From: Candidatus Pelearchaeum sp.
GTDB lineage: Archaea > Thermoproteota > Nitrososphaeria_A > Caldarchaeales > Caldarchaeaceae
Assembly (NCBI GenBank): GCA_015520425.1
Contig: WAQC01000142.1
Coordinates: 1 to 24,000 of the forward strand
Direction of reading: 5' to 3'
DNA: 24,000 bases
How positions within the stretch are numbered: the first letter of the stretch is position 1; each line of letters opens with the position of its first letter. The translations under genes and the position numbers were made by a program. This document shows positions 1-24,000 of the stretch, piece by piece. The notes beneath the pieces were generated by a model. The model ran no database searches, was not told the DNA's origin, and was given only the letters and a program-made list of their open reading frames with translations.

Positions 1-1
1 G

Positions 2-913
2 ATTTACTCAATATACCCTCTCCTAACTGGAGACACCTATTTACTACGCGTCCTGATACTCGTCCATATATTCGCAATACTTGCCGCGAGTCTTGACATA
101 ATCGTGGGATACACTGGCCAGCTAACCGCTGGGCATACGGCGGTATGGGGGTGGGGTGCCTTCACAACGGCGTGGATGATACTATGGTTTGGTACCAACC
201 CGCTTCTAGCTGTTCTCATGGGCGCCCTCTTCGGCGCCCTCCTAGGACTGGGAATAGGGATACTCTGCCTCCGCTTCAGATACCTACTCCTAACCCTCGT
301 AACCTTCGCCCTCCTAGTACTCTCCTACGCCCTAGCGCGGCAATTCACAGACATAACAGGAGGAGAACTAGGCCTTCACGGAATAACTCCAATAACAAAG
401 AACCCAATACTCAGCTTCTACATCACCTTCGGCGCCCTCCTAATAACCGTGGTATCCCTCTTCGCATTAGGCAGGTCGCGTATAGGTCTGAGGATGAAAT
501 CCATCAAGGAAGATGAGGTAGCGGCCGAGACGATTGGGATAAACACTGTGCGCTACAAGGTTCTCGCCAACGTCATAGGCTCGTTCTACGCAGGGCTGGC
601 TGGGGGGCTCTACACAACATACACAACCAGCGTCGGGGCAAGCATATTCTTCCTAGACCACCTCCTACGCCTCATACTCATGTGGGGAATAGGAGGCGGC
701 GGCACAATAATAGGACCAGTAATAGGCGCCTACGCGGTCATGCTACTCTCAGAGTATCTTAGATTCATAGAAGAGTTTAGGCTAATACTCCTCGGAGTAA
801 TAATGATACTAATAATGCGCTTCTTCCCAGCAGGCCTTTATGGAATGATAAACTTAACACTCATGAAGACACCAGTGAGAGGAGGAAGACCAAATGAGCC
901 TCCTAAAAGTTGA
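2..913 (+). CDS. Branched-chain amino acid-type ABC transporter permease (LivM-like), 5' end cut by the window edge
   Basis: The frame is open from base 2, with no stop upstream of the GTG at 104 (...SLDIIVGYTGQLTAGHTA), so the gene runs off the left edge. The product is a hydrophobic multi-TM protein with a LivM/LivH-type GYTGQL..GH segment. Its 3' end overlaps the next ATPase gene by 20 nt. Confidence 0.8.
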   Translation: MYSIYPLLTGDTYLLRVLILVHIFAILAASLDIIVGYTGQLTAGHTAVWGWGAFTTAWMILWFGTNPLLAVLMGALFGALLGLGIGILCLRFRYLLLTLVTFALLVLSYALARQFTDITGGELGLHGITPITKNPILSFYITFGALLITVVSLFALGRSRIGLRMKSIKEDEVAAETIGINTVRYKVLANVIGSFYAGLAGGLYTTYTTSVGASIFFLDHLLRLILMWGIGGGGTIIGPVIGAYAVMLLSEYLRFIEEFRLILLGVIMILIMRFFPAGLYGMINLTLMKTPVRGGRPNEPPKS

Positions 914-1604
914 GAATGCCACCAAACGATTTGGAGGGAACGTGGCGGTTAACGCCATGAGCCTGGAGGTTAATGAGGCAGAGATAGTGGGCATCATAGG
1001 GCCCAACGGCTCTGGAAAAACCACCCTCCTAAACCTCATAAACGGAATAATACAACTAGACTCAGGAGCAATCTTCCTGCGTGGAAAGCCTATACATAAT
1101 AAAAAACCACATCAGCTGGTGCGTTTAGGAATAGGGAGAACATTCCAGATAACGCGGGTATTTCGGGAGCTTACGGTATTGGAAAACATGTTATCAATCG
1201 TTGAGGCTGGAAAGAGCGATAAGAATAATCTTGTGGAAAATGCTTTCAATCTCCTAGAGCTCATAGGTCTCTCAGACAAGCTTGACGCGCGGGCAGGGAC
1301 ACTCTCAGGTGGCCAGCAAAAGCTTCTGGAATTCGCCCGCACACTAATGCTAAACCCCACAATACTACTCCTAGACGAGCCATTCGCTGGCGTGCATCCA
1401 AAGATAGTGATGAAGCTCTCGGAGCTTATACTGGATATGAGAAAGCAAGGAAAGACATTCCTCATAATAAGCCACGACATACATACGATATCATGGCTTA
1501 GCGATAGGCTGGTTGTGATGAATGAGGGACGTAAGGTCGCTGAGGGGAGCCCAGAGCAGATTAAACAAGACCGTGAGGTAGTTAGAGCATATTTGGGGGT
1601 GTAA
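894..1604 (+). CDS. livG: ABC transporter ATP-binding protein, LivG-like
   Basis: Walker A GPNGSGKTT, signature LSGGQQKLLEFA and Walker B LLLDEPFAG. The ATG overlaps the end of the permease gene. Confidence 0.85.
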   Translation: MSLLKVENATKRFGGNVAVNAMSLEVNEAEIVGIIGPNGSGKTTLLNLINGIIQLDSGAIFLRGKPIHNKKPHQLVRLGIGRTFQITRVFRELTVLENMLSIVEAGKSDKNNLVENAFNLLELIGLSDKLDARAGTLSGGQQKLLEFARTLMLNPTILLLDEPFAGVHPKIVMKLSELILDMRKQGKTFLIISHDIHTISWLSDRLVVMNEGRKVAEGSPEQIKQDREVVRAYLGV

Positions 1605-1607
1605 TGT

Positions 1608-2351
1608 TTGTCGCTTGTTGTTAGGGATATTTACTCAGGATACTTCCGCGACGTGAATGTTTTACGCGGAGTGAGCCTTGAGGTCTGCGAAGGCTCCATA
1701 ACAGCCGTTCTAGGCCCCAACGGCTCTGGAAAATCAACACTACTAAAAACAATATACGGATACCTAAAACCATCCAGCGGTAAGATACTACTTGACAGCC
1801 ATGACATAACAGGAATGAAGACCCACGACCTCCTCAGGATGGGCCTCGCCTACGTTGCTCAGGAAAGTGGAATATTCCCACACCTAACAGTTGAGGAAAA
1901 CCTAAAGACTGGTCTCTGGATACTGCGCAAAGAAAAACATATCGTAAGAGAGAGGCTTGAAGAGATTTACAACAGATTTGAAATACTCTCCGAGAAACGC
2001 AACGTTAAGGCAGGTTTTCTAAGCGGAGGCCAGCAACGCCTCCTCCAGATAGCAAAAGCGCTCCTCACCAAACCAAGAATAATACTAATGGACGAGCCCT
2101 CCTCAGGGCTCTCACCAAAAGTCCTAGATGAAGTATATGGAATAATCACAAAGCTCCGCGACGAAGGAAAAACAATACTACTCGTGGAGCAGAACGTCAG
2201 AAAAGCCCTGGAAGTTGCTGACGCGATAAACGTGATAGAGCTCGGCCAGACAAAATTCAGCGGAACAAAAAGAGAGTTTGAAGAACGGCTGGAGGAGATA
2301 ATCGGAATATGGGGATTCAAGGCAGCAGGATTACAGCACGGCAAGGGCTAG
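1608..2351 (+). CDS. livF: ABC transporter ATP-binding protein, LivF-like
   Basis: Walker A GPNGSGKST, signature LSGGQQRLLQIA and Walker B ILMDEPSSGL. A TTG start lies 3 nt after the livG stop. Confidence 0.85.
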   Translation: MSLVVRDIYSGYFRDVNVLRGVSLEVCEGSITAVLGPNGSGKSTLLKTIYGYLKPSSGKILLDSHDITGMKTHDLLRMGLAYVAQESGIFPHLTVEENLKTGLWILRKEKHIVRERLEEIYNRFEILSEKRNVKAGFLSGGQQRLLQIAKALLTKPRIILMDEPSSGLSPKVLDEVYGIITKLRDEGKTILLVEQNVRKALEVADAINVIELGQTKFSGTKREFEERLEEIIGIWGFKAAGLQHGKG

Positions 2352-2454
2352 GGGGAAGAAACAGAAGACCAAGGCAACCGATATTTGATAGGTCTAGTGT
2401 GAATGCTCAATTTAGGAGGGTTTGAGGCTCTTCTACAGTGTTGTGAGTTGAATA

Positions 2455-2466
2455 AGATATATTAAT
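2455..2466 (+). promoter_or_regulatory. TATA-like box upstream of vapB
   Basis: The element agatatattaat is centred about 27 nt upstream of the vapB ATG at 2487, which is the spacing expected for a leaderless archaeal mRNA. Confidence 0.4.
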
Positions 2467-2486
2467 GTGGTTGCTGTATTACATGT

Positions 2487-2726
2487 ATGGCTGTAATTAC
2501 GGTTAGGGTTGATGACGAGACGAAGAGGATGATGGAGCAGGTCGGGATTAACTGGAGTGAATTCATCAGAGAAGCCATTAAGAAAAAGTTGTCTGAAGAG
2601 AGGAGGAAGAACCTGGCAAGAGCCGTTTTAATAAACGAGAAAGTTAGGAAGAAGAGTGGTGTAGAGCCTAAAGCAGAGGAACTGGTCAGAGCCTTTAGAG
2701 ATGGTAGGTATGGAGGTGGTAATTGA
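2487..2726 (+). CDS. vapB: VapB-type antitoxin (ribbon-helix-helix-like N-terminus)
   Basis: 79 aa beginning MAVITVRVDDETKRMMEQ.., the beta-strand plus helix pattern of RHH/CopG-like antitoxins. It overlaps the downstream PIN gene by 17-26 nt, the classic TA arrangement. Confidence 0.7.
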   Translation: MAVITVRVDDETKRMMEQVGINWSEFIREAIKKKLSEERRKNLARAVLINEKVRKKSGVEPKAEELVRAFRDGRYGGGN

Positions 2727-3135
2727 CGCCAGCGTCATCGTCAAGTGGTTCGTCGCGGAGAAAGGCTCCGACTACGCACTTAAGCTCAGAGACATGTACA
2801 TTAGCGGGGAAATCAAAATCGCCGCCCCAGAGCTACTGCTTTACGAGGTCTTAAACGCAGTCCAACATAAGGGGCTCTTCTCATAAAACGAGATAAAAGA
2901 TATTGCAGAAGCACTAGAAGAGTATTCATTCAACCTCTACCCACTCAGGGGAGAATACGCCGCAAAAACAGTCGAAACAGCACATAAGAACCGCGTAACA
3001 ATATACGACGCTGCTTACATAGCACTAGCAATAATGAAGAATACCCACCTCTATACAGCCGACATCAAACTAATAGAAAAACTACAAACCAAGTATTCCA
3101 GATATGTAAAAAGCCTAGAAAGCCTCTCACGCTAA
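2701..3135 (+). pseudogene. vapC: VapC PIN-domain toxin interrupted by a single in-frame TAA (codon 62)
   Basis: The ORF stops at TAA 2884-2886, but the same frame continues for 82 more sense codons to TAA 3133-3135. The joined 143-aa product is a complete PIN domain, with acidic residues present in VIDASV, LLYEV, IYDAAY and YTAD. Confidence 0.75.
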
Positions 3136-3251
3136 ACAACACTATCCACAACACTTCAAGCCACGCAACAACGCCTCTATATCATTATAACTTTCAATTT
3201 CCTTTTGGAATCAGCTTAAACTCTAGCCGTATATTACTCTCCTTTAGATGA

Positions 3252-3398
3252 TTATTCTGTAATCTCCATCTGTATAACTTTACCCTTCTTAATAGAAACT
3301 CACCTAACAAGACCATATCCAACAAGCCGATTCAACAACTCATAGACAGACTTACTACCCTACCTCCTCTCTAGCTCAGACGCGGAAACCCATAGCAT
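3252..3398 (-). pseudogene. Possible remnant of a small winged-helix regulator with two in-frame stops
   Basis: The minus-strand frame reads MLWVSASELERR*GSKSVYELLNRLVGYGLVR*VSIKKGKVIQMEITE*. The S.SVYELLNRL...GLV pattern is a typical wHTH recognition-helix region. TAG and TGA stops interrupt it. Confidence 0.3.
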
Positions 3399-3493
3399 AG
3401 TATAAAAAATAGCTAAAACAGAGACTCGGCCTCGCTCAGCCTTGAATCTTCAACCTAGTTCATGGCAGTTTAGTTAAATGGATTAAGTTGACC

Positions 3494-3591
3494 TGGGGGC
3501 GGTGGGACTTGAACCCACGGCCTTCGGGTGTCCTCTGACCAGTGTTGGTTGATCTGGAGCCCGACGCCCTACCTTGCTAGGCTACGCCCCC
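3494..3591 (-). tRNA. tRNA-Trp (anticodon CCA) with a 24-nt intron at the canonical 37/38 position
   Basis: Cloverleaf read by eye: acceptor GGGGGCG/CGCCCCC, D arm GCCT-AGCAAGGTA-GGGC, anticodon arm TCGGG-CTCCAGA-CCCGA interrupted after CTCCAG, variable loop AGGCC, T arm GTGGG-TTCAAGT-CCCAC, discriminator A. No CCA is encoded. Confidence 0.9.
3530..3553 (-). other. tRNA-Trp intron (boundary ambiguous by 1 nt)
   Basis: Removing 24 nt (ATCAACCAACACTGGTCAGAGGAC) restores a 7-nt anticodon loop and a 5-bp stem. The intron contains CTGG, complementary to the anticodon-proximal CCAG. Confidence 0.75.
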
Positions 3592-3664
3592 ATCCTATGG
3601 CTACCGTTTGAGTTATTCTCTAGCGGTTATTTGAATTTTATACTCCGTATTTCGGGGTTGGCTG

Positions 3665-4504
3665 TCATCTTAGTTGTTTGACGATTGTCATGAGTTGTTT
3701 TACGCGGTTTATGTCTATTGGGTTCCAGAATTTTCCGTCTTTGCGTAGGTATGAGCCGACTATTGCGCCGTCTGCGTGTTTTAGGAGTTGTGGGGCGTTT
3801 TCTGGTGTTAGTCCGCTTCCGACCAGAACTGGGAGGAGTGTAGCCTTTTTTGCGGCTATTACTTTCTCCGCTGGTGTTGCAGCCCCTGTCCTGGTGCCAG
3901 ATACGATTATGGCGTCTGCGTCAAAGAACTCCACATCAAGGACCTGCTCCTCAAATGGTCTATCACTGATTATGAAGTGGCTTCCGTGCTTTACCTGTAC
4001 GTCTGCGAATACCTTGATATGCTCTGCTCTTAGGTGGTTTCTGTATCTTAGCGCTTTGTGTGCGATTGCCTCTACGAATCCCTCGTCGGCTATGTATGCG
4101 TTTGCCCATTCTGCTGCCCTAACCCAGCGTGCTCCAGATGCTAGGGCTGCTGCCATAGCTTGTATAACTCCATTAGCTAAGCAGCAAATCCCCACTGGCA
4201 TTCCTGTGGTCTTCCTAACTTCGCGCGCCACAACCGCGAGTATGGCGGTGGTTTCATGTCCTATGTCGTCTGGCTTGAGGTATGGTATATCCCCTATATT
4301 CTCCACCTGTAGCCCATCTACATCACCCGACTTTAGAAGCTCCGCGTCTCGCAGCGCGTATTCAATTATATCCTCAACAGGCTGGCCCCTATAGCGCGGC
4401 GCTCCTGGAAGTGGTGGTAGGTGTATCATCGCTATTATCGGTTTAGGGTTCTTGAACAACTCCTTTAGAGGGTCTGGCTTGATTGGTGCATGAGCTTCGG
4501 GCAT
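3665..4504 (-). CDS. BtpA/SgcQ-family TIM-barrel protein (function unknown), paralog 1
   Basis: Family hallmarks are IIAMIHLPPLPGAPRY near the N-terminus and the C-terminal phosphate-binding-type motifs VLVGSGLTPEN and ADGAIVGSY. The ATG at 4504 is preferred over the TTG at 4513. It lies 50-60 nt downstream of a PfkB kinase on the same strand. Confidence 0.8.
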   Translation of the reverse strand: MPEAHAPIKPDPLKELFKNPKPIIAMIHLPPLPGAPRYRGQPVEDIIEYALRDAELLKSGDVDGLQVENIGDIPYLKPDDIGHETTAILAVVAREVRKTTGMPVGICCLANGVIQAMAAALASGARWVRAAEWANAYIADEGFVEAIAHKALRYRNHLRAEHIKVFADVQVKHGSHFIISDRPFEEQVLDVEFFDADAIIVSGTRTGAATPAEKVIAAKKATLLPVLVGSGLTPENAPQLLKHADGAIVGSYLRKDGKFWNPIDINRVKQLMTIVKQLR

Positions 4505-4563
4505 CGCCGTCAAGATGTGTAGCCGCGTACTTAAGGGTGTTGAGCCATGCGTGGCCTGCGGTA

Positions 4564-5499
4564 TTACCTTGGGCCCCTCCTGTGTTGAGTAACTATGTCA
4601 TCAATTCGGGGAGGCTCTCTGAGTCTTCCACCTATCGTTGCTGCTGCTAGGCCGCCCAGCCTATTTGCCAGGGTAGCGCAACGCTCTAAGCTGAGGCTCG
4701 TTACTATGCCATAAATAAAGCCAGCGGCAAAAGCGTCTCCAGAGCCTGTGGTATCCACTGGGTTTACGGATGCCGTAGGGACGTCTATAACGCCGCTCCT
4801 CCCCACAATACTACAGCCGCGGGAGCCACGTTTTAGCACGAAGATACTCCCTATACTCAAGGCTGCCTCACCAATGCTAGTAATGCCCAACCTACCGAGA
4901 AGTTCGCCTGCCTCATCCTCATTCATAAATACGTAGTCAAAAGACCTAAGAAGCTCGTCCAGTTGTTCTCCACCTCTTATGAGAGGTATGCATAGGTCTA
5001 GCGTCTTAGGTATGCCGTGCTTATCTGCTTTCTCCATAATATATTCGGCTGCTCTCTTCTGTGGTTCTTCCAAGAAACAATATCCAGAGATATGTATCAG
5101 TGTTGATTCTGATGCTATATCTCTAGGAAGCAACGCATGTGTAAGGTGCTTATTGGCCCCTCTATATGCGAACATCGTCCTCTCGCCGCCGCGGCTTACC
5201 ACAACATATACAACGCCTGTTGATTCTTTCTCGGTCTTCTGTATGTAACGTGTCCCAACCCTGGCTTTGCGGAGCTCCTCAACCAGAAACTCTCCAACGA
5301 TATCCATGCCCACGCAGCTCACCAGCTCGGAAGATAGTCCGAGAAGTCTAAGTGCATGGGCTACGTTGGCGGCTGAGCCACCAGAAGAAATGTAAGCCCT
5401 ATTAGCTATGGACTCGCCGCCGAGCTTGGGTATATCATCGTGAAAAGCTATAATATCCAGATTAAGGTCGCCGACGCATATAACGCGGCCCTCACGCAT
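4564..5499 (-). CDS. PfkB-family carbohydrate/nucleoside kinase, substrate unknown
   Basis: GGSAANVAHAL and the anion-hole motif DTTGSGDAFAAGF. The ATG at 5499 (MREGRVICVGDLNLD) is preferred over the TTG at 5523. Confidence 0.8.
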   Translation of the reverse strand: MREGRVICVGDLNLDIIAFHDDIPKLGGESIANRAYISSGGSAANVAHALRLLGLSSELVSCVGMDIVGEFLVEELRKARVGTRYIQKTEKESTGVVYVVVSRGGERTMFAYRGANKHLTHALLPRDIASESTLIHISGYCFLEEPQKRAAEYIMEKADKHGIPKTLDLCIPLIRGGEQLDELLRSFDYVFMNEDEAGELLGRLGITSIGEAALSIGSIFVLKRGSRGCSIVGRSGVIDVPTASVNPVDTTGSGDAFAAGFIYGIVTSLSLERCATLANRLGGLAAATIGGRLREPPRIDDIVTQHRRGPR

Positions 5500-5526
5500 G
5501 GTCAGAAAAACGATAACAAACAAAAC

Positions 5527-5537
5527 ATAAGAATTAT
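5527..5537 (-). promoter_or_regulatory. TATA-like box for the PfkB-BtpA transcription unit
   Basis: The minus strand reads ataattctta, centred about 32 nt upstream of the ATG at 5499. Confidence 0.35.
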
Positions 5538-5595
5538 CATACCCACGGTCAATCTACGCTCTTAATCGGGAAGTGATGGCATAATTTTTATCGGA

Positions 5596-5607
5596 TTATT
5601 TTTTAGA
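5596..5607 (+). promoter_or_regulatory. TATA-like box for cdd
   Basis: The element attattttttag is centred about 25 nt upstream of the ATG at 5626. Confidence 0.45.
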
Positions 5608-5625
5608 CTAGCGTTGTGCGTCTTT

Positions 5626-6024
5626 ATGGTATCGGATAAGGAGCTTCTTGGTTTGGCTTTCAGGGCTACGCGACGGTCTTATGCGCCTTATTCGCGCTTT
5701 AGGGTTGGTGCGGCCTTGCTATTAGACAGCGGTGAAGTAATCTTAGGGAGTAATGTGGAGAACGCCAGCTATGGGTTATCCATGTGCGCTGAGCGCGTCG
5801 CTGTCTTTAAAGCGGTTTCTGAGGGAAAGACGCAGTTCAAGGCTATGGCTGTTGTCTCGCGGAAGAGAAACCCCGTATACCCCTGCGGAGCATGTAGGCA
5901 GGTTCTGCGAGAGTTCAACCCAGCGATAAAGATAATCACCGCTGGAAAGAATAGAAAGCCGCTGATAACCAGTTTAAAGAAGCTGCTGCCGAAGAGCTTC
6001 GGCCCTGAAGACCTATCAAAATAA
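5626..6024 (+). CDS. cdd: Cytidine deaminase (short, homotetrameric type)
   Basis: Zinc and catalytic motifs CAERVAVF and PCGACRQVLREF. The ATG at 5626 is preferred over the TTG at 5614. Confidence 0.9.
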   Translation: MVSDKELLGLAFRATRRSYAPYSRFRVGAALLLDSGEVILGSNVENASYGLSMCAERVAVFKAVSEGKTQFKAMAVVSRKRNPVYPCGACRQVLREFNPAIKIITAGKNRKPLITSLKKLLPKSFGPEDLSK

Positions 6025-6072
6025 TAGAGACCTAGAATAAGGGCAGCATTACTGGATGGAGGTGCGCTATGG

Positions 6073-7023
6073 GTGAAGCGGTTGATAATTGATACAGACA
6101 CTGCTGGTGATGATACTATATCAATACTGTTGGCGCTTAAGTGGCCTGGGGTTAGGCTTGAGGCGGTAACAGTTGTTGCTGGTAATGTGGAGTTCTGGCA
6201 GGAGGTGGAGAATGCTCTCTATACCGTTGAGCGCTTCGCCAGCTATCGCGTCCCCGTCTATCCAGGATGTAGCCGCCCCCTCCTCAAGAGCTGGCGCTAC
6301 GCCGATTATGTCCATGGAAAGGATGGGATGGGAGAGAACTACTTCCCGAAAGCCAAACAGCGGCCAGAGAATAAACACGCAGTCCAAGCCTTGCTGGAGC
6401 TGGTCAACTCAAGCCCAGGGGAGTATACGATAATCGCTCAGGGCCCGTTAACCAACATAGCCACAGCGATATTGCTTGACCGTGATTTTGTCAAGAATAT
6501 AGATAGGCTATATGTTATGGGCGGCTATGCCGATGGTTTCGGGAACATAACCCCAGCAGCGGAGTATAACTTCTGGGTAGACCCCGACGCTGCGAGGATT
6601 GTGCTTGAGTCTGGTATTAGGCCTGTTATAGTTGGCTGGGATATTGCGCTGAAGTATAGTGTAGTCTCTGAGGAGGAGCATCGTGAAATAGCTGGATGGG
6701 GGACTAGTGAGGCGGATTTCTTCGTGAAGGTGAATAGGAAAGTTGTGGAGTTTGAGAAGCGTGTCGTCGGTGTTGCTGGGAGCACCCATCCAGACACCAT
6801 AACGACGGCCATAGCCATAGAGCCTCGCGTGGGGAAGAGGATAGAGCCGCGCTATGTGGCGGTTGAGAATGAAAGCGAGCTCACGCGGGGGATGTCGGTG
6901 GTGGACCACCTAGGAGTACTAGGCAAAGAACCCAACGCAGATGTATGCTACGAGGCTGATGGCGAGCTATTCAAGAAGATGCTATTCTCAGTCTTGAAGG
7001 GCAGGCCTGGTGAGCTTGGATGA
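6073..7023 (+). CDS. Nucleoside hydrolase (IU-NH family)
   Basis: N-terminal fingerprint IIDTDTAGDDTISILLAL (DxDxxxDD). GTG start with GGAGGTG 9 nt upstream. The stop overlaps the deoC ATG (ATGA). Confidence 0.9.
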   Translation: MKRLIIDTDTAGDDTISILLALKWPGVRLEAVTVVAGNVEFWQEVENALYTVERFASYRVPVYPGCSRPLLKSWRYADYVHGKDGMGENYFPKAKQRPENKHAVQALLELVNSSPGEYTIIAQGPLTNIATAILLDRDFVKNIDRLYVMGGYADGFGNITPAAEYNFWVDPDAARIVLESGIRPVIVGWDIALKYSVVSEEEHREIAGWGTSEADFFVKVNRKVVEFEKRVVGVAGSTHPDTITTAIAIEPRVGKRIEPRYVAVENESELTRGMSVVDHLGVLGKEPNADVCYEADGELFKKMLFSVLKGRPGELG

Positions 7024-7709
7024 GATTCTCGGCAAAGGACTTGGCTAGGAGGATACAGCATACAAACGTGGCTCCTGACGCTACGCGGGGTGATATTGAG
7101 AAGCTATGCAAAGAATGTATTGAGTATGGGTTTAGCGCAGCGGTGGTTAATCCGATATGGGTTAAGAGCGCTGTCAGCTTATTGAAGGGAACCGATGTTA
7201 AGGTCTGTGCAGCTCTCAACTTCCCGATAGGCGGCTCCACAACCCTGGCTAAGGTCGTTGAAGTACGCGATGTGGTGGCTGCTGGATGTGATGAGATAGA
7301 CTTCATGATAAACGTGGGTTATCTTAAATCAGGCATGGTTGAGGAGTTCAGGAATGATGTAGAAGCCATAGTGCGGGCTGCTGATGGGCGTGTGGTGAAG
7401 GCTATACTGGAGACAGCAATACTGAGCGAAGATGAAGTTAGGCTGGCCGCGAGGCTCTGCGAAGAGGCTGGAGTGGACTATATCAAGAACTCAACGGGCT
7501 GGGGCAAGGGAGGCCCAGCTACGGTTGATATTATAAGACTTATGCGCAGCTCGGTAAGCCCAAAAGTACGCATAAAGGCTTCGGGGGGAATACGCGACTT
7601 CAAGAGCGCTGTTGAGCTCCTAGAGGCAGGAGCCGACCTTCTAGGAACAAGCAGGGGAGTGCAGATAGTAAAGGGAACGATAGACGCTGAGGATGAGTCA
7701 TCCTACTAA
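7020..7709 (+). CDS. deoC: Deoxyribose-phosphate aldolase
   Basis: Class I aldolase pattern of the short DERA type: VKAILET, IKNSTGW, IKASGGIR and LGTS. It is translationally coupled to the upstream gene. Confidence 0.85.
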   Translation: MRFSAKDLARRIQHTNVAPDATRGDIEKLCKECIEYGFSAAVVNPIWVKSAVSLLKGTDVKVCAALNFPIGGSTTLAKVVEVRDVVAAGCDEIDFMINVGYLKSGMVEEFRNDVEAIVRAADGRVVKAILETAILSEDEVRLAARLCEEAGVDYIKNSTGWGKGGPATVDIIRLMRSSVSPKVRIKASGGIRDFKSAVELLEAGADLLGTSRGVQIVKGTIDAEDESSY

Positions 7710-7717
7710 GAGGAGGG

Positions 7718-8653
7718 TTGCCGCACTTGAGTAATGAGATAGTCGTGGTCGGGAGCTATAACACTGGCTTCCTAATCCACGTTGATAGACTCCCAACACG
7801 GGGCGAGACGCTGCCTGGTAGGGGGTTTAGGATGGAGCATGGAGGCAAGGGCTCTAACCAGGCTATACAGGCTGCGCGTCTCGGGTGTAGGACAGCCATG
7901 ATAGCCGCGGTAGGTGATGACATATTCGGAGAACGCGCTATCAAGAAGTGGCGCAACGAAGGAGTGGAGACAGCCTACGTCAAACGCTGCAAAACACCAA
8001 CAGGGGCTGGGCTAATAATCGTAGGCCCAGGAGGGGAAAACATGATAGCCGTAGACCTAGGAGCAAACCTTGAGCTAACACCAAGCGATGTTGATGAGGC
8101 TTTGCAGCGATTGAGCGGTGTAAAAATTGTGCTTACGCAGTTGGAGATACCTTTGGAAACGGCCCTACACGCTCTAGCTCTAGCACAGCGTAATGGGGCC
8201 ATGACTATACTTAACCCAGCCCCCGCAGCCCGTATAACGCCAGCCATGCTAAGGGGCGTCAGCATAATAACGCCTAATGAGGTTGAGGCCAAGATAATGG
8301 CTGGCCTAGGCCCAGATGAGCAGGTAGACTTGGCCGAGCTTGCTAGGACGTATTGCGATGCGGTGGAGCATGTGGTCATAACGCTTGGGGAGCGTGGAGC
8401 GCTCATAGTGGATAGTAAGGGTGAGCGGATAGTTAAGCCGCCGCGGGTAGATGCGGTGGACGCCACAGGGGCTGGCGACGCATTTAACGGAGCGCTGGCA
8501 GCGGCACTAGCGCGGGGCATGGATATTGATACTGCCGTTGAATACGCCTGCGCAGCAGGGGCTTTCCTAGCAGCGCGAATTAAGCGCGGCGAGCTTGTAG
8601 AAGCCCTAGCCACACGCGAGGAGCTAGAAAGATTCAAAAAACAACAACAATAG
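7718..8653 (+). CDS. rbsK: Ribokinase (PfkB family)
   Basis: GGKGSNQAIQAARLG, NPAPA and DATGAGDAFNGALAAAL. The start is TTG at 7718 or 7727, and GAGGAGGG lies immediately upstream. Confidence 0.85.
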   Translation: MPHLSNEIVVVGSYNTGFLIHVDRLPTRGETLPGRGFRMEHGGKGSNQAIQAARLGCRTAMIAAVGDDIFGERAIKKWRNEGVETAYVKRCKTPTGAGLIIVGPGGENMIAVDLGANLELTPSDVDEALQRLSGVKIVLTQLEIPLETALHALALAQRNGAMTILNPAPAARITPAMLRGVSIITPNEVEAKIMAGLGPDEQVDLAELARTYCDAVEHVVITLGERGALIVDSKGERIVKPPRVDAVDATGAGDAFNGALAAALARGMDIDTAVEYACAAGAFLAARIKRGELVEALATREELERFKKQQQ

Positions 8654-8662
8654 CTACCTGCT

Positions 8663-9496
8663 ATGTCGGCGAGAGAGCCGCGTAGCGGCGAGGAGTTTTA
8701 TCATGTGAGAGTCAGGCCTGGAGAGGTTGCGGAATACGTCCTAATACCAGGAGACCCTGAGAGAGTGCCTAAGATAGCCAAGTTCTGGGATGAGGCGCGC
8801 GAGGTCTCGTTTCATAGGGAGTTTAAGCTCTGGAATGGCCGTGTAGGCAGGGCTTCCATATCTGCGTGCTCAACAGGCATAGGCGCGCCATCAACAGCCA
8901 TAGCTATAGAAGAACTAGCCCGCGCAGGTGCGAATACCTTCATAAGGGTTGGAAGCTCAGGCGCAATACAACCAGGAATAAAGATAGGCGAGCTGATAAT
9001 ATCCAAGGCCGCTGTAAGGCTTGAGGGAACCAGCAGACAGTATGTTGTTGAGGGCTATCCAGCGTATGCAGACCTTGAAGTAACCCTAGCCCTAGTGGAA
9101 GCCGCCGAGACGCTGGGGCTACGCTACCACCTGGGAATAACCGCATCCACAGACAGCTTCTACACAGGCCAGGGCAGGCCAGGCTTCAAAAACTATTCCT
9201 GGAGCTACTCAGAGACGCTCCTAAAAGATATGCAGGCCATGGGTGTCGCGAATTTTGAGATGGAGGCATCGGCAATATTCACACTCGCCTCAATTTACGG
9301 ACTTAGGGCTGGCGCGGTATGTACGGTCTTCGCCAATAGGGTTGAAGATACCTTCGGCGTCGCTGGTGAGGAGGACGCTGCCCGCGTCGCTGTGGAGGCT
9401 GTAAAAATACTCCATGAATGGGATGAACTCAAGAAGAGCGCTGGGAAACGCTACATCTACCCATCACTACTAAAGCGGTGGATGCAAACCAAGTGA
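8663..9496 (+). CDS. udp: Uridine phosphorylase (PNP/UDP family)
   Basis: GDPERV, STGIGAPSTAIAIEEL, RVGSSGA, FYTGQGR (a Q/R pair typical of uridine-specific enzymes) and FEMEASAIF. Confidence 0.8.
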   Translation: MSAREPRSGEEFYHVRVRPGEVAEYVLIPGDPERVPKIAKFWDEAREVSFHREFKLWNGRVGRASISACSTGIGAPSTAIAIEELARAGANTFIRVGSSGAIQPGIKIGELIISKAAVRLEGTSRQYVVEGYPAYADLEVTLALVEAAETLGLRYHLGITASTDSFYTGQGRPGFKNYSWSYSETLLKDMQAMGVANFEMEASAIFTLASIYGLRAGAVCTVFANRVEDTFGVAGEEDAARVAVEAVKILHEWDELKKSAGKRYIYPSLLKRWMQTK

Positions 9497-9500
9497 TAGA

Positions 9501-10304
9501 CTACCTAATCTTCCTAACGAGGCGCATAACCTCCCTAACACGCCTGACATCAACAGGATTCGCCAATACCCCACCCATCTTAAAGTATGTTCCGACTATA
9601 GCGCCGTCGGCCACAGATAAGAGTCTCTCAACGTTATCTGGAGTTATCCCACTTCCAACCAACACTGGCCGCGAGGCAGCCGACTTAACCTGCTGAAGCC
9701 TCTCAAGCGGTGTCTCAGCTCCAGTGCGCTCGCCAGATACTATGATAGCGTCAGCCCCCAGCTCCTCAAGCCGCGAAACCTGGGTAGCGAGAGGAATGTC
9801 TGAGGTAATAAAATGACTCCCATGCTTAACCAAAACGTCAGCAAACACACTTACGGGCGTGTCTATCCCTCTTAGACGCTCCGCGCGAGGAGCGGCCGCT
9901 TCCACAAATCCTTCATCAGCGATATACGCATAGGCCCACATATTCGCACGCACCCAACTAGCACCGCATGCCTTCGCTGCGGCTATTGATTCCTCCACAC
10001 CATTGGCTAATATGAACACACCAGTGGGCAAGCCTGTTGTGCGCCTTACCTCGCGGGCAACAGCCGCGACTAGAGCTATGGCCTCGTGGCCAATCTCGCC
10101 AGGCTTAAGGAAAGGGCTATCGCCCATATTCTCAACCTGAACACCATCCACACCACCTTCCTTCAGCGCTTCAGCATCTCTTAGAGCGGTCTCAAACAAA
10201 TCATAAGCCCCTTCCTCAAATCTTGGAGAGCCAGGTAATGGCTTTAAATGAACCATACCAATAATAGGCTTGACAACGCCGAATATCTCTTCAAGAACAT
10301 TCAT
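9501..10304 (-). CDS. BtpA/SgcQ-family TIM-barrel protein, paralog 2
   Basis: IIGMVHLKPLPGSPRF, VLVGSGITPDN and ADGAIVGTY. By eye, about half or more of positions are identical to the protein of 3665..4504. It is convergent with udp and divergent from the transporter operon. Confidence 0.85.
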   Translation of the reverse strand: MNVLEEIFGVVKPIIGMVHLKPLPGSPRFEEGAYDLFETALRDAEALKEGGVDGVQVENMGDSPFLKPGEIGHEAIALVAAVAREVRRTTGLPTGVFILANGVEESIAAAKACGASWVRANMWAYAYIADEGFVEAAAPRAERLRGIDTPVSVFADVLVKHGSHFITSDIPLATQVSRLEELGADAIIVSGERTGAETPLERLQQVKSAASRPVLVGSGITPDNVERLLSVADGAIVGTYFKMGGVLANPVDVRRVREVMRLVRKIR

Positions 10305-10333
10305 CTACCGTGTTGTACTGGCTTGTAGGCATG

Positions 10334-10350
10334 TATATAGCTTTAATATA
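10334..10350. promoter_or_regulatory. Back-to-back TATA boxes in the 71-bp divergent intergenic region
   Basis: tatata (10334-10339) lies 30-35 nt from the minus-strand ATG at 10304. ctttaatata (10341-10350) lies 26-35 nt from the plus-strand ATG at 10376. An imperfect inverted repeat flanks them (gcttgtaggc ... gcctatacaacgc). Confidence 0.5.
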
Positions 10351-10375
10351 CGCTCAGCCTATACAACGCTGGGAA

Positions 10376-11911
10376 ATGAGTAGCCCAACCACGCGTGGCG
10401 AGGTTCTCGTTGAGGCGCGGAGAGTTGTTAAAGCTTTCCCAGGAGTATGGGAGCATTTGATACTTGACCATATTGACTTTGATGTCAGGGCTGGCGAGGT
10501 TCATGCCCTGCTCGGCGAGAACGGCGCTGGGAAGACCGTGCTAGCAAACATACTCTCAGGCTTCTACACACTATCAGAAGGTGAGATAAGAGTCAGGGGA
10601 AGGCCAGTCAAAATAAAATCACCGCTTGACGCCATAAGATATGGTATTGGAATGGTTCATCAAGAATTCACGCTCGTCCCATCTCTTACGGTAGCGGAAA
10701 ACATAGCCCTATCAATAAGGAGGCGTAACATCTTTTCATATCCAGTAAGAGAGGTAGCAACAAAAGTACGCGAGCTGTCCAAGAGGTATGGATTACGCGT
10801 AGACCCTGACATGCTCATAAGCCACATGTCTCTGGGCGAGCAGCAGCGTGTTGAGATACTGAAGGTGCTTTTCTGGGAGCCTAATGTTCTCATACTTGAT
10901 GAGCCTACGTCAGTCTTAACGCTTGAGGAGGCTAATGAGCTGTTTAAGATTCTACGCCGTATGGCGGATGAGGGTAAGGGGGTAGTCTTCATAACGCATC
11001 GCATAGAGGAGATAATGCGCGTGGCCGATAGGGTTACTGTGCTCAGGCTGGGTAAGAAGGTTGGAACGTTAAACGTTGCTGAAGCGTCGCGCGAGCAGCT
11101 TCTGCGCATGATGATAGGCGAGTTTGAGCCGTTTAGAGCTGAGAGAAAACCGCCAAGAATAGGTGAGCCTGTCCTAGAGATTAGAGATTTGCACGTCTGT
11201 GGTGATGATGGTCGGGAAGCTGTCCGCGGCGTTAGCTTCACCACACATGCTGGAGAGATATTCGGTATTGCTGGAGTTGCTGGTAATGGCCAGCGCGAGC
11301 TTGTGGAAGCGATAACTGGCCTGCGTAAAGCTGTGCGCGGCAGAATAATCATCCTAGGACAAGACGCTACCAATAAATCGCCACGCGAGGTCGCGGAGAT
11401 GGGCGTAAGACACATACCAGAAGAACGCCGCCGCGTGGGTGTGGCAGAAGCCATGTGCGTAGCTGAGAATATGATGCTCCGCGACTATAATATCGCTCCA
11501 TTCTCTAAGAAAGGAGTGCTGGACTTGAGACTGATAGGAGAGCATTCCAAGGCTCTTATTGAGAGGTTCAAGATACTCGCTCCTGACATCTGGAATACTG
11601 AAGTAAGGATACTCTCAGGAGGAAATATACAGCGCCTAATATTGGCGCGGGAGCTATGGCGCGCACCCAAGCTTGTAATCGCCTTCCACCCCACGTATGG
11701 CCTTGACCTAAAAGCTGTAAGCCATACCCACGACCTATTTATGCAACTCCGCGATAAAGGCTCATCAATACTCCTAGTCTCTGAAGACCTAGAGGAGATA
11801 CTAACACTAAGCGACCGCATAGGTGTGATGTATGATGGTCGTCTGGTGGGTGTGGTGGAGTCGGAGAAGGCTACTACAGAGGTTATCGGTAAGATGATGA
11901 CTGGTATGTAG
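10376..11911 (+). CDS. Two-domain ABC ATPase of a BMP/nucleoside (CUT2-type) importer
   Basis: NBD1 has GENGAGKT, LSLGEQQRVEI and ILILDEPT. NBD2 is degenerate (GVAGNGQ, LSGGNIQRLILAREL, AFHPTYGLDL), as in RbsA/NupA-like fused ATPases. The ATG at 10376 is preferred over the GTG at 10310. Confidence 0.85.
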   Translation: MSSPTTRGEVLVEARRVVKAFPGVWEHLILDHIDFDVRAGEVHALLGENGAGKTVLANILSGFYTLSEGEIRVRGRPVKIKSPLDAIRYGIGMVHQEFTLVPSLTVAENIALSIRRRNIFSYPVREVATKVRELSKRYGLRVDPDMLISHMSLGEQQRVEILKVLFWEPNVLILDEPTSVLTLEEANELFKILRRMADEGKGVVFITHRIEEIMRVADRVTVLRLGKKVGTLNVAEASREQLLRMMIGEFEPFRAERKPPRIGEPVLEIRDLHVCGDDGREAVRGVSFTTHAGEIFGIAGVAGNGQRELVEAITGLRKAVRGRIIILGQDATNKSPREVAEMGVRHIPEERRRVGVAEAMCVAENMMLRDYNIAPFSKKGVLDLRLIGEHSKALIERFKILAPDIWNTEVRILSGGNIQRLILARELWRAPKLVIAFHPTYGLDLKAVSHTHDLFMQLRDKGSSILLVSEDLEEILTLSDRIGVMYDGRLVGVVESEKATTEVIGKMMTGM

Positions 11912-11937
11912 GCTGTTTCATGAAAATTTCTACAAAG

Positions 11938-11947
11938 ATTTATATAA
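11938..11947 (+). promoter_or_regulatory. TATA box for the binding-protein gene
   Basis: The element atttatataa is centred about 29 nt upstream of the ATG at 11972. Confidence 0.5.
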
Positions 11948-11971
11948 CTTGGCTTAAGTGGCCAGCGCGCT

Positions 11972-14649: not shown

Positions 14650-15647
14650 AGCTCGGCGCATTGGCACATAGGCTCATCTGGACTGCTGTGGGCCTAGGGC
14701 TCCTAGCGCTGGTAAGCTATGAGCTATCGCAAGCTGGGATTAGGCCCATCAAGCTACTGGAGACAGCCCTACTGCCCATGACGCCCCTAGTCCTAGCGGC
14801 GGTAGGTGAATGCGTCAACGAGAGGGCAGGAGTAATCAACATAGGTATAGAGGGAATATTCCTTATAACAGCGGTACTAGGCGTGTTCTGGGCTGAGGTT
14901 CTCGGCTCAGGACTATTGGGAATATTGATGGGCGGTTTATTCGGAGCCATAATAGGCGGCATCCTAGGCGTGATTAGCACGTACGGCCGCGCAGATCAGA
15001 TAATCGCTGGCATGGGACTAAATGTGATGAGCCTCGGCCTAGTCCAATACCTGCTGATGGCCATATGGGCCTTCCCAGGCATTCACGTATTCCCCCGCGA
15101 GCTGGTGCTACCCCGAATAGCTCTACCAACGCCAATAGGGGTTCTCAGAATAAGCCCCATGACAATCGCTGCAATAATAATAACACTCCTCACCGCACTA
15201 CTCCTCTATAAAACACTTCTCGGCCTCCGCATACGGGCCGCGGGAGACAAACCAGAAGCCGTTGACGTTGCTGGAATCAACGTGAACCGGGTACGCATCT
15301 TCGCCAGCGTATTTGCAGGCTTCCTAGCAGGCCTCGGAGGAGCCTTCATGCCCTTAGCATGGTTTGGCGGGCTTGTTAAAGAAGTATCAGCAGGCAGGGG
15401 ATTCATAGCGCTAGCAGCAGTAGTCTTCGCAGGGCTGAACCCAATACTAGCCCTAGCAGCATCATTCATCTTCGGCTTCGCTGAAGGTCTTGCATTCGCG
15501 ATAGCAGTAACACCAGGCGTAAAAGAAGTCATACCATTCCACTTCGTACAAATGACACCATACCTAGTTACCGTAATAATCCTAGCAATATTCGTAACCT
15601 CACGTAGATTCCCACGAGCACTCGGCAAACCATACATCAGAGAATAA
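14646..15647 (+). CDS. ABC transporter permease (BMP/ribose-type), second subunit
   Basis: Multi-TM protein with GVINIGIEGIFL, translationally coupled to the previous permease. Confidence 0.85.
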   Translation: MKLGALAHRLIWTAVGLGLLALVSYELSQAGIRPIKLLETALLPMTPLVLAAVGECVNERAGVINIGIEGIFLITAVLGVFWAEVLGSGLLGILMGGLFGAIIGGILGVISTYGRADQIIAGMGLNVMSLGLVQYLLMAIWAFPGIHVFPRELVLPRIALPTPIGVLRISPMTIAAIIITLLTALLLYKTLLGLRIRAAGDKPEAVDVAGINVNRVRIFASVFAGFLAGLGGAFMPLAWFGGLVKEVSAGRGFIALAAVVFAGLNPILALAASFIFGFAEGLAFAIAVTPGVKEVIPFHFVQMTPYLVTVIILAIFVTSRRFPRALGKPYIRE

Positions 15648-15668: not shown

Positions 15669-15790
15669 TGCTCGCCGGCACGCGGTCTTCGCGAGGGGTC
15701 TCCCACCTCACTAAAAACCGCGCGGGCAGGGGCTTAGCTTCCAGGTTCGGATGGGTCTGGGCGTTTCCCCCCGCCCTATGACCGGCGAGC
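15669..15790 (-). rRNA. 5S ribosomal RNA, not linked to 16S/23S
   Basis: The minus strand reads GCTCGCCGGTCATAGGGCGG...CCGAACCTGGAAGCTAAGCC...TGCCGGCGAGCA. There is a 10-bp terminal helix plus the conserved CCGAAC..GAAG(Y)TAAGC core, total about 122 nt. The ORFs called here are spurious. Confidence 0.9.
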
Positions 15791-19438: not shown

Positions 19439-19486
19439 GCCCAGCGTCACCCGCGCTAAGCTAAACAAAAACCTAAATCCAAATAC

Positions 19487-19888: not shown

Positions 19889-19933
19889 ACTATTTCCCCA
19901 CTCATCGCGGCGTTAAAACATTATGCGGGAAAG

Positions 19934-20996: not shown

Positions 20997-21015
20997 TTTT
21001 AGGGAATTAAAGGTT

Positions 21016-21030
21016 CTTGTTTTTGGTTGT
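21016..21030 (+). terminator. T-rich tract after rpiA
   Basis: The tract cttgtttttggttgt includes a T5 run 24 nt after the stop. Confidence 0.35.
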
Positions 21031-21198: not shown

Positions 21199-21286
21199 CT
21201 ACTTCACCTGCCAAGATAAAGGGATTACGCGTATTAATAAGTTGTTTCGTTAAACTGTTAAAGAACGGCCCAAGGGTCCTTTTCTG

Positions 21287-21976: not shown

Positions 21977-22003
21977 ACGATATTATAGAAAATCGTGAAG
22001 ATA

Positions 22004-22013
22004 GATAAAATAT
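22004..22013 (-). promoter_or_regulatory. TATA-like box for the HAD hydrolase gene
   Basis: The minus strand reads atattttatc, centred about 32 nt upstream of the ATG at 21976. Confidence 0.4.
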
Positions 22014-22017
22014 TCCT

Positions 22018-22569: not shown

Positions 22570-22626
22570 ATCAAGCCACCAGAGCCCAGCATGTCATAAT
22601 ATATGTTGCTTAGTTATTCAATCCAT

Positions 22627-22637
22627 TGTTTAAATAC
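22627..22637 (+). promoter_or_regulatory. TATA box for trxB
   Basis: The element tgtttaaatac is centred about 31 nt upstream of the ATG at 22663. Confidence 0.5.
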
Positions 22638-22662
22638 GCCTAAATGCATACCATTATCCAAT

Positions 22663-23625
22663 ATGAGTGAGTACGACGTTATAATCATAGGAAGCGGCCC
22701 TGCAGGCTACACTGCCGCAATATACACGTGCCGCGCAAATCTAAAGACCTTGATAATAGCTGGGATAGAGAGCGGCGGCCAGCTCATGCTCACACGCGAG
22801 GTTGAGAACTATCCTGGTTTCCCTGAGGGGGTGCTTGGGCCAGACCTGATGGAGCGTATGAGGCAGCAGGCAGAGAATATGGGCGCCGAAATAATCTACG
22901 AGGATGCCACTGCAGTGGATTTTAAAAGCTATCCATTGAAAGTGTTTGTGGAAGACAGGGAATATGTGGCTAAGGCTGTGATAATCGCAACAGGCGCCTC
23001 CCCCAAATGGCTTGGTCTAGAGTCTGAGAAACGCCTCTTAGGCAGGGGGGTCTCTAGCTGTGCTACCTGCGATGGACCATTATTCAAGGGAGCTAACAAT
23101 GTTGTGGTGGTCGGAGGCGGAGACGCTGCTATGGAATACGCCCTCTACCTCGCTAATCTAGTCAATAAAGTTACAGTAGTCCACCGCCGTGATAAGCTTC
23201 GCGCATCTAAAGTCATGCAAGAGAGAGCCTTCTCTAATCCTAAGATAGAGTTCATCTGGAATAGCGTGGTAAGCGATATACTGGGTGAAAACCGTGTTGA
23301 GGGTGTTAAGGTGAAGAATATACAGAATGGCGAGGAGAGTGTTATAAAATGCGAGGCTATCTTTATCGCCATAGGCCATAAACCAAATACTGACATATTC
23401 AAGGGACAGGTTGAACTGGATGAAATCGGATATGTAAAGCTACATAATGGTATGGAGACGAGTGTTAGAGGCGTATTTGCCGCTGGTGATGTCCATGACT
23501 ATAAGTATAGACAGGCCATTACCGCCGCTGGCTACGGATGTATGGCAGCTATGGAGGCTATCAGGTTTATTGAGGAGGGAATACCAGAAAAGCTAGCTGA
23601 GGCTCGCCAAGCACACACGGCATAA
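22663..23625 (+). CDS. trxB: Thioredoxin reductase
   Basis: IIIGSGPAGYTAA, redox-active CATC, VVGGGDAAMEYALYL, HRRDKLRAS and FAAGDV. The ATG at 22663 is preferred over the upstream start at 22603. Confidence 0.9.
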   Translation: MSEYDVIIIGSGPAGYTAAIYTCRANLKTLIIAGIESGGQLMLTREVENYPGFPEGVLGPDLMERMRQQAENMGAEIIYEDATAVDFKSYPLKVFVEDREYVAKAVIIATGASPKWLGLESEKRLLGRGVSSCATCDGPLFKGANNVVVVGGGDAAMEYALYLANLVNKVTVVHRRDKLRASKVMQERAFSNPKIEFIWNSVVSDILGENRVEGVKVKNIQNGEESVIKCEAIFIAIGHKPNTDIFKGQVELDEIGYVKLHNGMETSVRGVFAAGDVHDYKYRQAITAAGYGCMAAMEAIRFIEEGIPEKLAEARQAHTA

Positions 23626-23658
23626 GAATACCATAGGAAAGATACTCGGTGATGATAT

Positions 23659-23961
23659 GTGGTTAAGGTTATGTACCTACTAAAGAAGAAGCAAAACCTT
23701 AGCTTGGAAGACTTCAAAAATTACTGGCTCACAAAACATGTTCCTATAGTGCTTAAACTGCCGAATCTTCGCCGCTATGTAGTTAGCGTCAGCATTGATG
23801 AGCGCTCTGAATTCGCTGGGGTGGCTGAGCTCTGGTTTGAAAATCGCGAAGAGATGCGCGCAGCTCTAAAATCTGATGTAGGTAAGGAAATGGTTTCAGA
23901 TGCTTCCAACTTCGTGGAGAGCGCCATAATGCTCGTTGTGGAGGAGAATGTTATCCGCTAA
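23659..23961 (+). CDS. EthD-family (dimeric alpha/beta barrel) protein
   Basis: 100 aa beginning MVKVMYLLKKKQNLSLEDFKNYWLTKHVPIV, with GVAELWFENREEM, the typical EthD-domain pattern. GTG start. Confidence 0.6.
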   Translation: MVKVMYLLKKKQNLSLEDFKNYWLTKHVPIVLKLPNLRRYVVSVSIDERSEFAGVAELWFENREEMRAALKSDVGKEMVSDASNFVESAIMLVVEENVIR

Positions 23962-24000
23962 ACCTCTACAAAGACTTCCTGCTCTCTAATCACTACCTTG

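Follow-up and report, generated by a model that had tools for sequence, protein, structure and literature searches.

Why should DNA alternate, every few hundred base pairs, between stretches in which one strand is rich in G and T and stretches in which the same strand is rich in A and C? The question is raised by a stretch of 24,000 nt (the window throughout this text) from a hot-spring archaeon of the order Caldarchaeales (formerly Aigarchaeota), for which an earlier note, made from the sequence alone, had described a mosaic of such blocks that extended over the whole window and ignored gene boundaries and gene orientation. We mapped 27 protein genes in the window on the basis of Pfam and Rfam matches, with third codon positions ignored in gene calling and the reading frames fixed by full-length Pfam matches. 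The G+T fraction at third positions of the coding strand is abbreviated K3, and G and T are referred to as keto bases, A and C as amino bases. The pattern is real, strong and lineage-specific: in the Caldarchaeum-/Pelearchaeum-like group, transitions between amino and keto bases show a strand asymmetry that is both local and persistent. Along stretches of tens to a few hundred base pairs, sites that are free to vary drift to G or T on one strand and to A or C on the complement.

A recount of the plus strand reproduced the block values of the earlier note exactly, with G+T fractions of 0.400 (1681-2280), 0.578 (2401-2760), 0.365 (2761-3420), 0.574 (3421-4560), 0.415 (9481-10320) and 0.619 (1500-1680, at the livG/livF junction). 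The variance of G+T per 60-nt line was 29.4, versus a binomial value of 15.0. Shuffling of synonymous codons, with the proteins kept, gave variances of 22.6±0.7 within genes and 18.9±0.8 across genes, and the observed value was reached by 0 of 300 shuffles of either kind; the blocks therefore exceed chance in the shuffled-codon control that the earlier note had proposed. About one quarter of the excess over the binomial value is ordinary (amino-acid composition and non-coding DNA), about one quarter reflects synonymous usage differing between genes, and about half lies in the arrangement of codons inside genes. Segmentation of all positions at a conservative threshold retained only two blocks, 2853-3455 (G+T 0.36) and 3456-3879 (0.64), and outside these the mosaic is a third-position phenomenon.

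Per-gene K3 ranged from 0.21 to 0.65 and the G+C fraction at third positions from 0.39 to 0.68. When third bases were permuted within codon boxes within genes and the autocovariance was calculated for lags 1-5, clustering was confined to the keto/amino axis (Stouffer z of 9.1, versus -0.8 for the G+C and 0.1 for the purine axis). The choices between T and C and between G and A co-varied as strongly with each other as with themselves (cross-covariance z=6.7), in accordance with the joint excess of G over C and of T over A, of deamination type, that had been read from the letters. Among 20-codon blocks pooled over the clade, 95 had at most three G/T-ending codons (12 expected) and 77 had at least 16 (8 expected); stretches of 20-80 codons take almost only G/T-ending or only A/C-ending synonyms. 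Coherence peaks over 1-4 codons, with a tail (r=0.31 for adjacent 30-codon blocks and 0.08 across a 30-codon gap), giving a tract scale of ~50-200 bp. Third positions 3 nt apart were coupled at 0.16 and those 6-12 nt apart at 0.06-0.09. Their coupling to neighbouring first and second positions was weak (mostly ≤0.04, with 0.077 at one offset), and nearest-neighbour context was rejected as a cause on these grounds.

The nearest genome record is a metagenome-assembled genome (MAG) of 'Candidatus Pelearchaeum maunauluense' (order Caldarchaeales), contig L001, the BtpA1 protein of which is 98% identical to that of the window; DNA identity is ~91% over 3469-7249 and 8604-13210. Caldarchaeum MAGs come next, with 65-75% DNA identity. 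A metagenome scan for nearer relatives yielded none above ~85% amino-acid identity, and exact-protein look-ups of BtpA1 and BtpA2 of the window gave no match. Two Logan contigs from other sequencing runs, L081 (98.3% identical) and L082 (99.5%), span 3494-4910, which shows that the sequence does not depend on a single assembly. The keto/amino profile of L001 is the same as that of the window bin by bin, so the pattern persists in independent assemblies.

The strongest switch inside a gene is that of BtpA1 (3665-4513, minus strand), in which the number of G/T-ending codons per 20 drops from ~11-13 in the 5' half to 0-2 at the 3' end (cumulative sum [CUSUM] z=6.1, autocovariance z=6.7). Only 2 of its last 43 codons end in G or T; this tract is also found in L001 (0/20 and 4/20), its sequence is confirmed by L081 and L082, and the frame is secured by a Pfam BtpA match over residues 24-279. 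In livG, 20 consecutive plus-strand codons (1014-1073) include none ending in G or T (C8 T0 A12 G0), in agreement with the count previously given for 1020-1079, and the third positions flip at 1074-1253 (C7, T17). An amino-rich tract in livM (224-463, plus strand) has 8 of 80 codons ending in G or T. Keto-rich tracts are found at the 5' end of the nucleoside hydrolase gene IUNH (6073-6192, plus strand; 32/40 codons, with 12/20 and 17/20 in L001) and inside ABC2 (10850-10969, plus strand; 31/40 codons, CUSUM z=4.3 for the gene). BtpA2 (9501-10304, minus strand) has a coding strand that is keto-rich throughout (K3 0.65), whereas its paralogue BtpA1 on the same strand has a K3 of 0.35; neither strand nor protein family therefore sets the bias.

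These data leave little room for ordinary causes, namely amino-acid composition, gene orientation, mis-called frames or an artefact of metagenome assembly. Such causes do contribute: the variance remains at 18.9 rather than 15 after shuffling across genes, and the hydrophobic permeases are T-rich at second positions. Nevertheless, the observed variance exceeds that of every synonymous shuffle, the frames come from full-length Pfam matches and a gene calling blind to third positions, and the pattern recurs in independent assemblies from several studies, whereas other organisms of the same project series are without it (for example, L092 against L093 and L095). We consider an explanation of this kind scarcely credible, and the view that amino-acid composition or simple gene orientation is insufficient is borne out by the shuffles and by the two BtpA genes.

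We then considered whether the bias acts on decoding or on nucleotides, using local K3 centred on the gene mean for 76,853 codons from 16 loci of the clade. The synonymous choice between TTR and CTR codons for leucine, which concerns the first codon position, tracked local K3 (p=1e-12), as did the amino-acid choices Val/Ile (2e-23), Asp/Asn (3e-13), Val/Ala (3e-14) and Glu/Lys (3e-7). No relation to local K3 was seen for the choice between AGR and CGR, the amino/amino control (p=0.74). Intergenic 50-nt blocks were over-dispersed on the keto/amino axis only in the clade (variance z of 2.03, versus 0.82 in relatives with a G+C content of 0.6 and 1.08 in other controls). The bias operates at the level of nucleotides rather than of decoding, and the codon-level effect entertained earlier fails in the decoding sense, since the bias also shows in first-position leucine choice, in conservative replacements and in intergenic DNA. 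Translational codon-usage bias (optimal codons, tRNA reuse or a 5' ramp) was rejected on the same evidence and because the 5' effect described below ends by codon 10 in operon-internal genes. Likewise, avoidance of mRNA structure was rejected, because native genes fold slightly more stably than their synonymous shuffles (Stouffer z of -3.2 at 37 C and -5.8 at 75 C). The largest contributors to this extra stability were perm2 (z -4.9), IUNH, Bmp, PfkB2 and HAD.

The age of the tracts bears on whether they could have arisen in single events. The 636 differences between the window and L001 that change keto/amino class form no directional runs (runs z=-0.7), and the lagged keto/amino correlation between the two genomes (0.072) is equal to that within them (0.080 and 0.064). 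In comparisons with Caldarchaeum, synonymous sites are saturated (site correlation on the G+C axis of -0.01 to 0.055) and the K3 of individual genes differs among relatives (0.42-0.69 for BtpA2 orthologues, for example); a lagged keto/amino correlation of ~0.03 is kept in four of six relatives (L007-L010), with ~0 on the G+C axis and a site identity on that axis of only ~0.05. The tracts outlast ~10% divergence and partly outlast synonymous saturation; they are long maintained and then turn over. Because each lineage of the clade bears its own tracts despite saturated synonymous sites between lineages, the cause must be persistent and local rather than a series of isolated events.

Synonymous transitions between the window and L001 occurred in extreme tracts at 0.78x the rate of the middle range (not significant; tracts classed from a single genome), and transversions at 1.3-1.5x. 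This estimate is preferred to an earlier one of 0.5-0.6x, for which tracts were classed from both genomes, with a bias to low divergence. One-sided extra damage in the tracts, which predicts ~1.5x transitions, was rejected; the ratio is compatible both with a mutation/repair asymmetry that is two-sided and with a bias at fixation. The within-species differences usable for polarising numbered ~20.

Kataegis denotes strand-coordinated clusters of mutation in single-stranded DNA at resected breaks, as in yeast and tumours, and hypermutation of this kind in a hyperthermophile was among the causes first proposed for the mosaic. The likeness lies in the coordinated change of one strand, on the axis expected from deamination of A and C, with a polarity that can switch along the DNA. 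However, kataegis concerns fresh clusters, whereas the tracts described here are old, shared between species and near equilibrium. The mosaic predates the split from L001, at ~9% divergence, the differences from which are not directionally clustered, and the extreme tracts lack the expected transition excess (0.78x as opposed to ~1.5x). Third positions with less than 10% keto bases beside intact proteins need long directional pressure rather than single events, the tracts stop at gene junctions, and four other (hyper)thermophiles are without the pattern. The proposal is, in our judgement, very improbable.

The taxonomic distribution is narrow. All 17 loci from Caldarchaeum-/Pelearchaeum-like organisms (G+C content ~0.49-0.55) carry the mosaic, with keto/amino Stouffer z values of 4.9 to 17.3 and values for the G+C and purine axes mostly within ±1.6. 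Values were lower at three loci from sister Caldarchaeales of the same metagenome series with a G+C content of 0.59-0.60 (0.8 to 2.7), one locus from a more distant Nitrososphaeria MAG (L011; 2.2), 17 bacterial loci (-1.6 to 2.4), 35 other metagenome loci (-2.8 to 3.3) and four loci from Saccharolobus, Ignisphaera, Zestosphaera and Metallosphaera (-1.8 to 0.2). A universal property of genes was rejected on the basis of the bacterial and further metagenome loci, and a general property of hyperthermophiles on the basis of the last four, all of which come from Thermoproteota. The three sister contigs (L093, L095 and L099) have the same gene cluster, with a nucleoside hydrolase of 78-79% identity; the mosaic is largely missing from them and the 5' keto enrichment is weaker (+0.026). 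In Zestosphaera tikiterensis (NBVN01000002.1, 119774-140067; locus L168), gene K3 ranges from 0.32 to 0.68 (standard deviation 0.116) with no clustering within genes, which is heterogeneity of another kind, possibly related to strand or gene transfer. The earlier note knew of no description of such a pattern; the literature that we searched likewise yielded none for a keto/amino mosaic, and the pattern is apparently undescribed.

The relationship of the tracts to genes was assessed in 16 loci of the clade taken together, with junction, orientation and promoter statistics. Inside genes, adjacent 15-codon blocks were correlated (r=0.29), but they were not across co-oriented junctions with gaps of ≤60 nt (r=-0.02, n=114); the plus-strand correlation between oppositely oriented neighbours was -0.04 (n=38), and the mean K3 values of neighbouring genes were uncorrelated. 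Contrary to the first description, the tracts do not ignore gene boundaries, as their coherence ends there. The statement that they ignore gene orientation is correct in that simple orientation does not explain them, but there is an orientation-dependent component, and it is tied to promoters. Replication-type skew was rejected, as polarity flips within genes and between co-oriented neighbours (K3 0.28-0.65), with no plus-strand continuity across junctions.

The promoter-tied component was seen at the 5' ends of genes. Those with their own upstream region (n=97) were enriched in keto bases on the coding strand by +0.08 to +0.13 as far as codon 40, an effect that faded by about codon 70, whereas operon-internal genes (n=70) were enriched in the first 10 codons only. 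Start codons were preceded, at a distance of 26-35 nt, by an A/T peak, which is the position to be expected if transcripts are leaderless, and the first 250 nt of transcription units had an enrichment of +0.061, versus +0.004 in controls. The 5' effect depends on transcription initiation, not translation.

Stable-RNA genes provided a second line of evidence. At all six, the sense strand was keto-rich downstream (mean 0.60 at 1-100 nt, range 0.54-0.74, and 0.59 at 101-200 nt) and amino-rich upstream (mean keto fraction 0.41). The window contains two such genes, both on the minus strand: a tRNA gene with an intron (3494-3591; Rfam RF00005, 61.1 bits) and a stand-alone 5S rRNA gene (15670-15789; RF00001, 84.7 bits). 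Downstream of the tRNA gene, the sense-strand keto fraction was 0.54 (1-100 nt), 0.71 (101-200), 0.48 (201-300) and 0.68 (301-600); in the first two 100-nt bins downstream of the 5S rRNA gene it was 0.61 and 0.56. The two longest plus-strand amino-rich runs lie directly downstream of these two genes. The first is the strongest A+C-rich block (2853-3455), comprising the rest of the interrupted vapC and non-coding DNA transcriptionally downstream of the tRNA gene. It adjoins the strongest G+T-rich block (3456-3879), which comprises the tRNA gene and the 3' end of BtpA1; the switch between them, at the segmentation boundary 3455/3456, falls ~40 nt past the 3' end of the tRNA gene. The second is in perm2 (14826-15647, plus strand), transcriptionally directly downstream of the 5S rRNA gene; it becomes more extreme toward the 3' end of perm2, only 9 of the last 74 codons of which end in G or T. 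Genes upstream of a co-oriented neighbour bearing a promoter had amino-rich 3' ends (-0.04 to -0.07, n=25), and no such effect was found at gaps of ≤25 nt or at convergent pairs. Part of the pattern is thus positioned by transcription, with the non-template strand keto-rich for ~100-200 nt downstream of the starts of promoter-bearing genes and of tRNA and 5S genes, and amino-rich upstream of promoters.

The explanation that we favour, tentatively and with somewhat less than even confidence, is a transcription-linked asymmetry of deamination-type transitions, unusually strong in this lineage. The asymmetry would arise in mutation, repair or both: the exposed non-template strand would gain C>T and A>G changes, and the template strand would be protected or repaired. 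Bidirectional archaeal promoters, together with many internal and antisense starts, could then leave footprints of both polarities inside genes, and a change particular to this lineage, in repair or in the time spent in the open state, would account for the strength of the effect.

Several results weigh against this explanation. Promoter-like motifs inside genes, identified with a position weight matrix, were not followed by keto enrichment (-0.005±0.013 sense, +0.021±0.016 antisense), a weak negative given the weakness of the motif model. The shift at AT-rich 8-mers within genes was only ~0.02. At 47 strong polarity switches, A+T was only slightly higher at changes from amino to keto. There was no operon-long gradient over 104 transcription units of the clade; K3 seems to fall along operons in the window (0.57 to 0.44 from CDA to PNP and 0.51 to 0.28 from ABC2 to perm2), but this trend is not general, and such a gradient was rejected. 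The promoter-linked averages (+0.06 to +0.13) are small beside internal tracts with 0-10% or 80-90% keto bases. Four (hyper)thermophilic archaea, the promoters of which are presumably as bidirectional, are without the mosaic, so that the explanation requires a factor peculiar to this lineage, and the signal at the flanks of RNA genes could owe something to T-rich terminators and A-rich promoter elements. As internal promoter-like motifs do not predict tracts and no operon-long gradient exists, the link between the internal tracts and transcription is one that we infer.

A possible, if doubtful, alternative is that the internal tracts are not footprints of transcription but the product of an unrecognised, lineage-specific process that segregates keto and amino bases by strand. 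Candidates for such a process are a self-reinforcing loop of R-loops and deamination, and a strand-specific filter on G.T versus A.C heteroduplexes in short-patch recombination.

The first belongs to a broader class, in which strand-segregated tracts would be favoured at fixation, either through selection on a property of the mRNA or duplex or through a self-reinforcing process; for example, an R-loop-prone, G-rich non-template strand would expose itself to more A>G and C>T changes. A lean in either direction, once acquired, would favour more changes of the same kind, and polarity would be arbitrary, persistent and slow to turn over. Both polarities are indeed about equally common (95 and 77 extreme blocks), the tracts outlive site-level saturation in some relatives, amino-acid usage moves with them, the pattern is confined to one clade, and transitions in extreme tracts are predicted not to be elevated, in agreement with the 0.78x measured. 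Nevertheless, no function is known for segregated tracts, and RNA-structure avoidance was rejected. The weak coupling of third to first and second positions (mostly ≤0.04, versus 0.08-0.16 between third positions) is unexpected if overall purity is selected, and fixation bias alone leaves the promoter-dependent part unexplained. We regard it as unlikely.

The second candidate would also be a fixation bias, and as such compatible with the 0.78x transitions. A transition polymorphism in a heteroduplex gives a G.T or an A.C mismatch according to the strand transferred, and the two may be handled differently: were a NucS/EndoMS-type nuclease to cut G.T but not A.C, only tracts with amino alleles on the transferred strand would survive, and the outcome would be patches of coordinated polarity and of conversion-tract size. 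Such a filter would act on the keto/amino axis alone, leaving G+C content unchanged, as seen; the scale of ~50-200 bp fits the short conversion tracts reported for Sulfolobus; and the process could be clade-specific if it depended on the repertoire of repair genes. However, none of our tests showed recombination, the differences between the window and L001 lack directional clustering, and gene conversion offers no reason for the tracts to stop at junctions or for the part linked to promoters and stable RNAs. Saccharolobus, which carries a NucS/EndoMS-type enzyme, shows no mosaic. Strand-specific recombination therefore seems quite improbable.

The tracts may be compared with known strand asymmetries. 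In Escherichia coli genes, C>T changes are in excess on the non-transcribed strand, and in mammalian genes the sense strand has skews of T over A and G over C that are strongest near the 5' end. Such transcription-associated strand asymmetry is treated in a review (PMC10030826). It resembles the pattern described here in the keto excess on the non-template strand, which is 5'-proximal and promoter-dependent. It differs from our pattern in that local amplitude is far larger in the archaeal tracts (0-10% or 80-90% keto bases at third positions), that both polarities occur within single genes, and that a single archaeal lineage is concerned. In vertebrate mitochondrial DNA, the L strand is A+C-rich and the H strand G+T-rich, which is attributed to deamination of the strand left single in replication (PMC1794132). 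The chemical axis is the same, and third positions dominated by A and C are comparably extreme; however, the mitochondrial asymmetry is genome-wide, of one polarity and graded by replication, whereas here the sign flips every 50-300 bp and tracts stop at junctions. Bacterial chromosomes have replication-related GC and keto skews, as set out in two papers (PMC2804667, PMC3269016), with G over C and T over A jointly on one strand, as here; in the archaeal loci, by contrast, no polarity on the scale of replichores is visible, co-oriented neighbouring genes differ and flips occur inside genes. Mapping of start sites in Pyrococcus furiosus gave 797 antisense and 739 internal ones, and single TATA boxes were shown to initiate in both directions in vitro (PMC6640164). 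By analogy, antisense transcripts upstream of promoters would match the amino-rich sense strand upstream of promoters and RNA genes in our loci, although the Pyrococcus work concerns transcripts, not base composition.

In addition to the branched-chain-type ATP-binding cassette (ABC) transporter with livM/G/F-like genes, Pfam matches identified vapB with an interrupted vapC, a nucleoside-salvage cluster (two BtpA proteins, two PfkB kinases, a cytidine deaminase, the nucleoside hydrolase, a DeoC-like aldolase and a phosphorylase), a second ABC system (a Bmp binding protein and two permeases) and assorted enzymes. An in-frame TAA at 2887-2889 breaks the vapC frame (2701-3135, plus strand; PIN domain). 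The 144-residue product of translation past this stop still matches PF01850 (E=1.7e-8), and the gene is either a recent pseudogene or a case of read-through. Nowhere in the window is K3 lower than in its 3' part (0.21). The tRNA gene was not called by ARAGORN, and its probable intron (3522-3551) is the most variable part of the comparison with contig L081, with 10 differences in 30 nt.

The salvage cluster contains two BtpA/PfkB pairs (3665-5523 and 7718-10304). Positions 7250-8603, which take in all but the 5' third of the DeoC-like gene and the greater part of the PfkB2 kinase gene, have no counterpart in L001, in which the flanks are joined directly; the DeoC-like product of L001 is only 46.5% identical to that of the window. 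This difference looks like an insertion, deletion or replacement inside the cluster. The best matches of BtpA1 outside Caldarchaeales are bacterial (Chloroflexota, Rhizobiaceae and Enterobacterales; ~50% identity), which hints at an old inter-domain transfer of the cluster. Antisense open reading frames of 220-266 amino acids, unusually long for DNA with 50% G+C, lie within well-supported genes at 3678-4394 (plus strand) and at 10660-11454, 11485-12285 and 7975-8637 (all minus strand). Such frames may have arisen because the skew at third positions eliminates stop codons on the opposite strand.

Synonymous sites are widely treated as near-neutral, varying by G+C content or codon optimality; in these archaea, runs of 20-80 codons are driven almost wholly to A/C or G/T endings, with an accompanying shift in the choice of amino acids, and work on codon usage, the detection of horizontal transfer, the ratio of non-synonymous to synonymous substitution rates (dN/dS) and phylogenetic models can be misled. 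If the tracts are linked to transcription, they would constitute an evolutionary record of sense and antisense starts in organisms that have never been cultured, and a handle on archaeal transcription-coupled damage and repair, which is still debated. If they are not, they point to an unrecognised directional force on the keto/amino axis; internal tracts that were not footprints of transcription would, if this is true, add a new kind of force to those that shape synonymous sites, of the same rank as GC-biased gene conversion. Close Caldarchaeales with and without the mosaic, from similar hot springs, provide a natural comparison for the gene or trait responsible.

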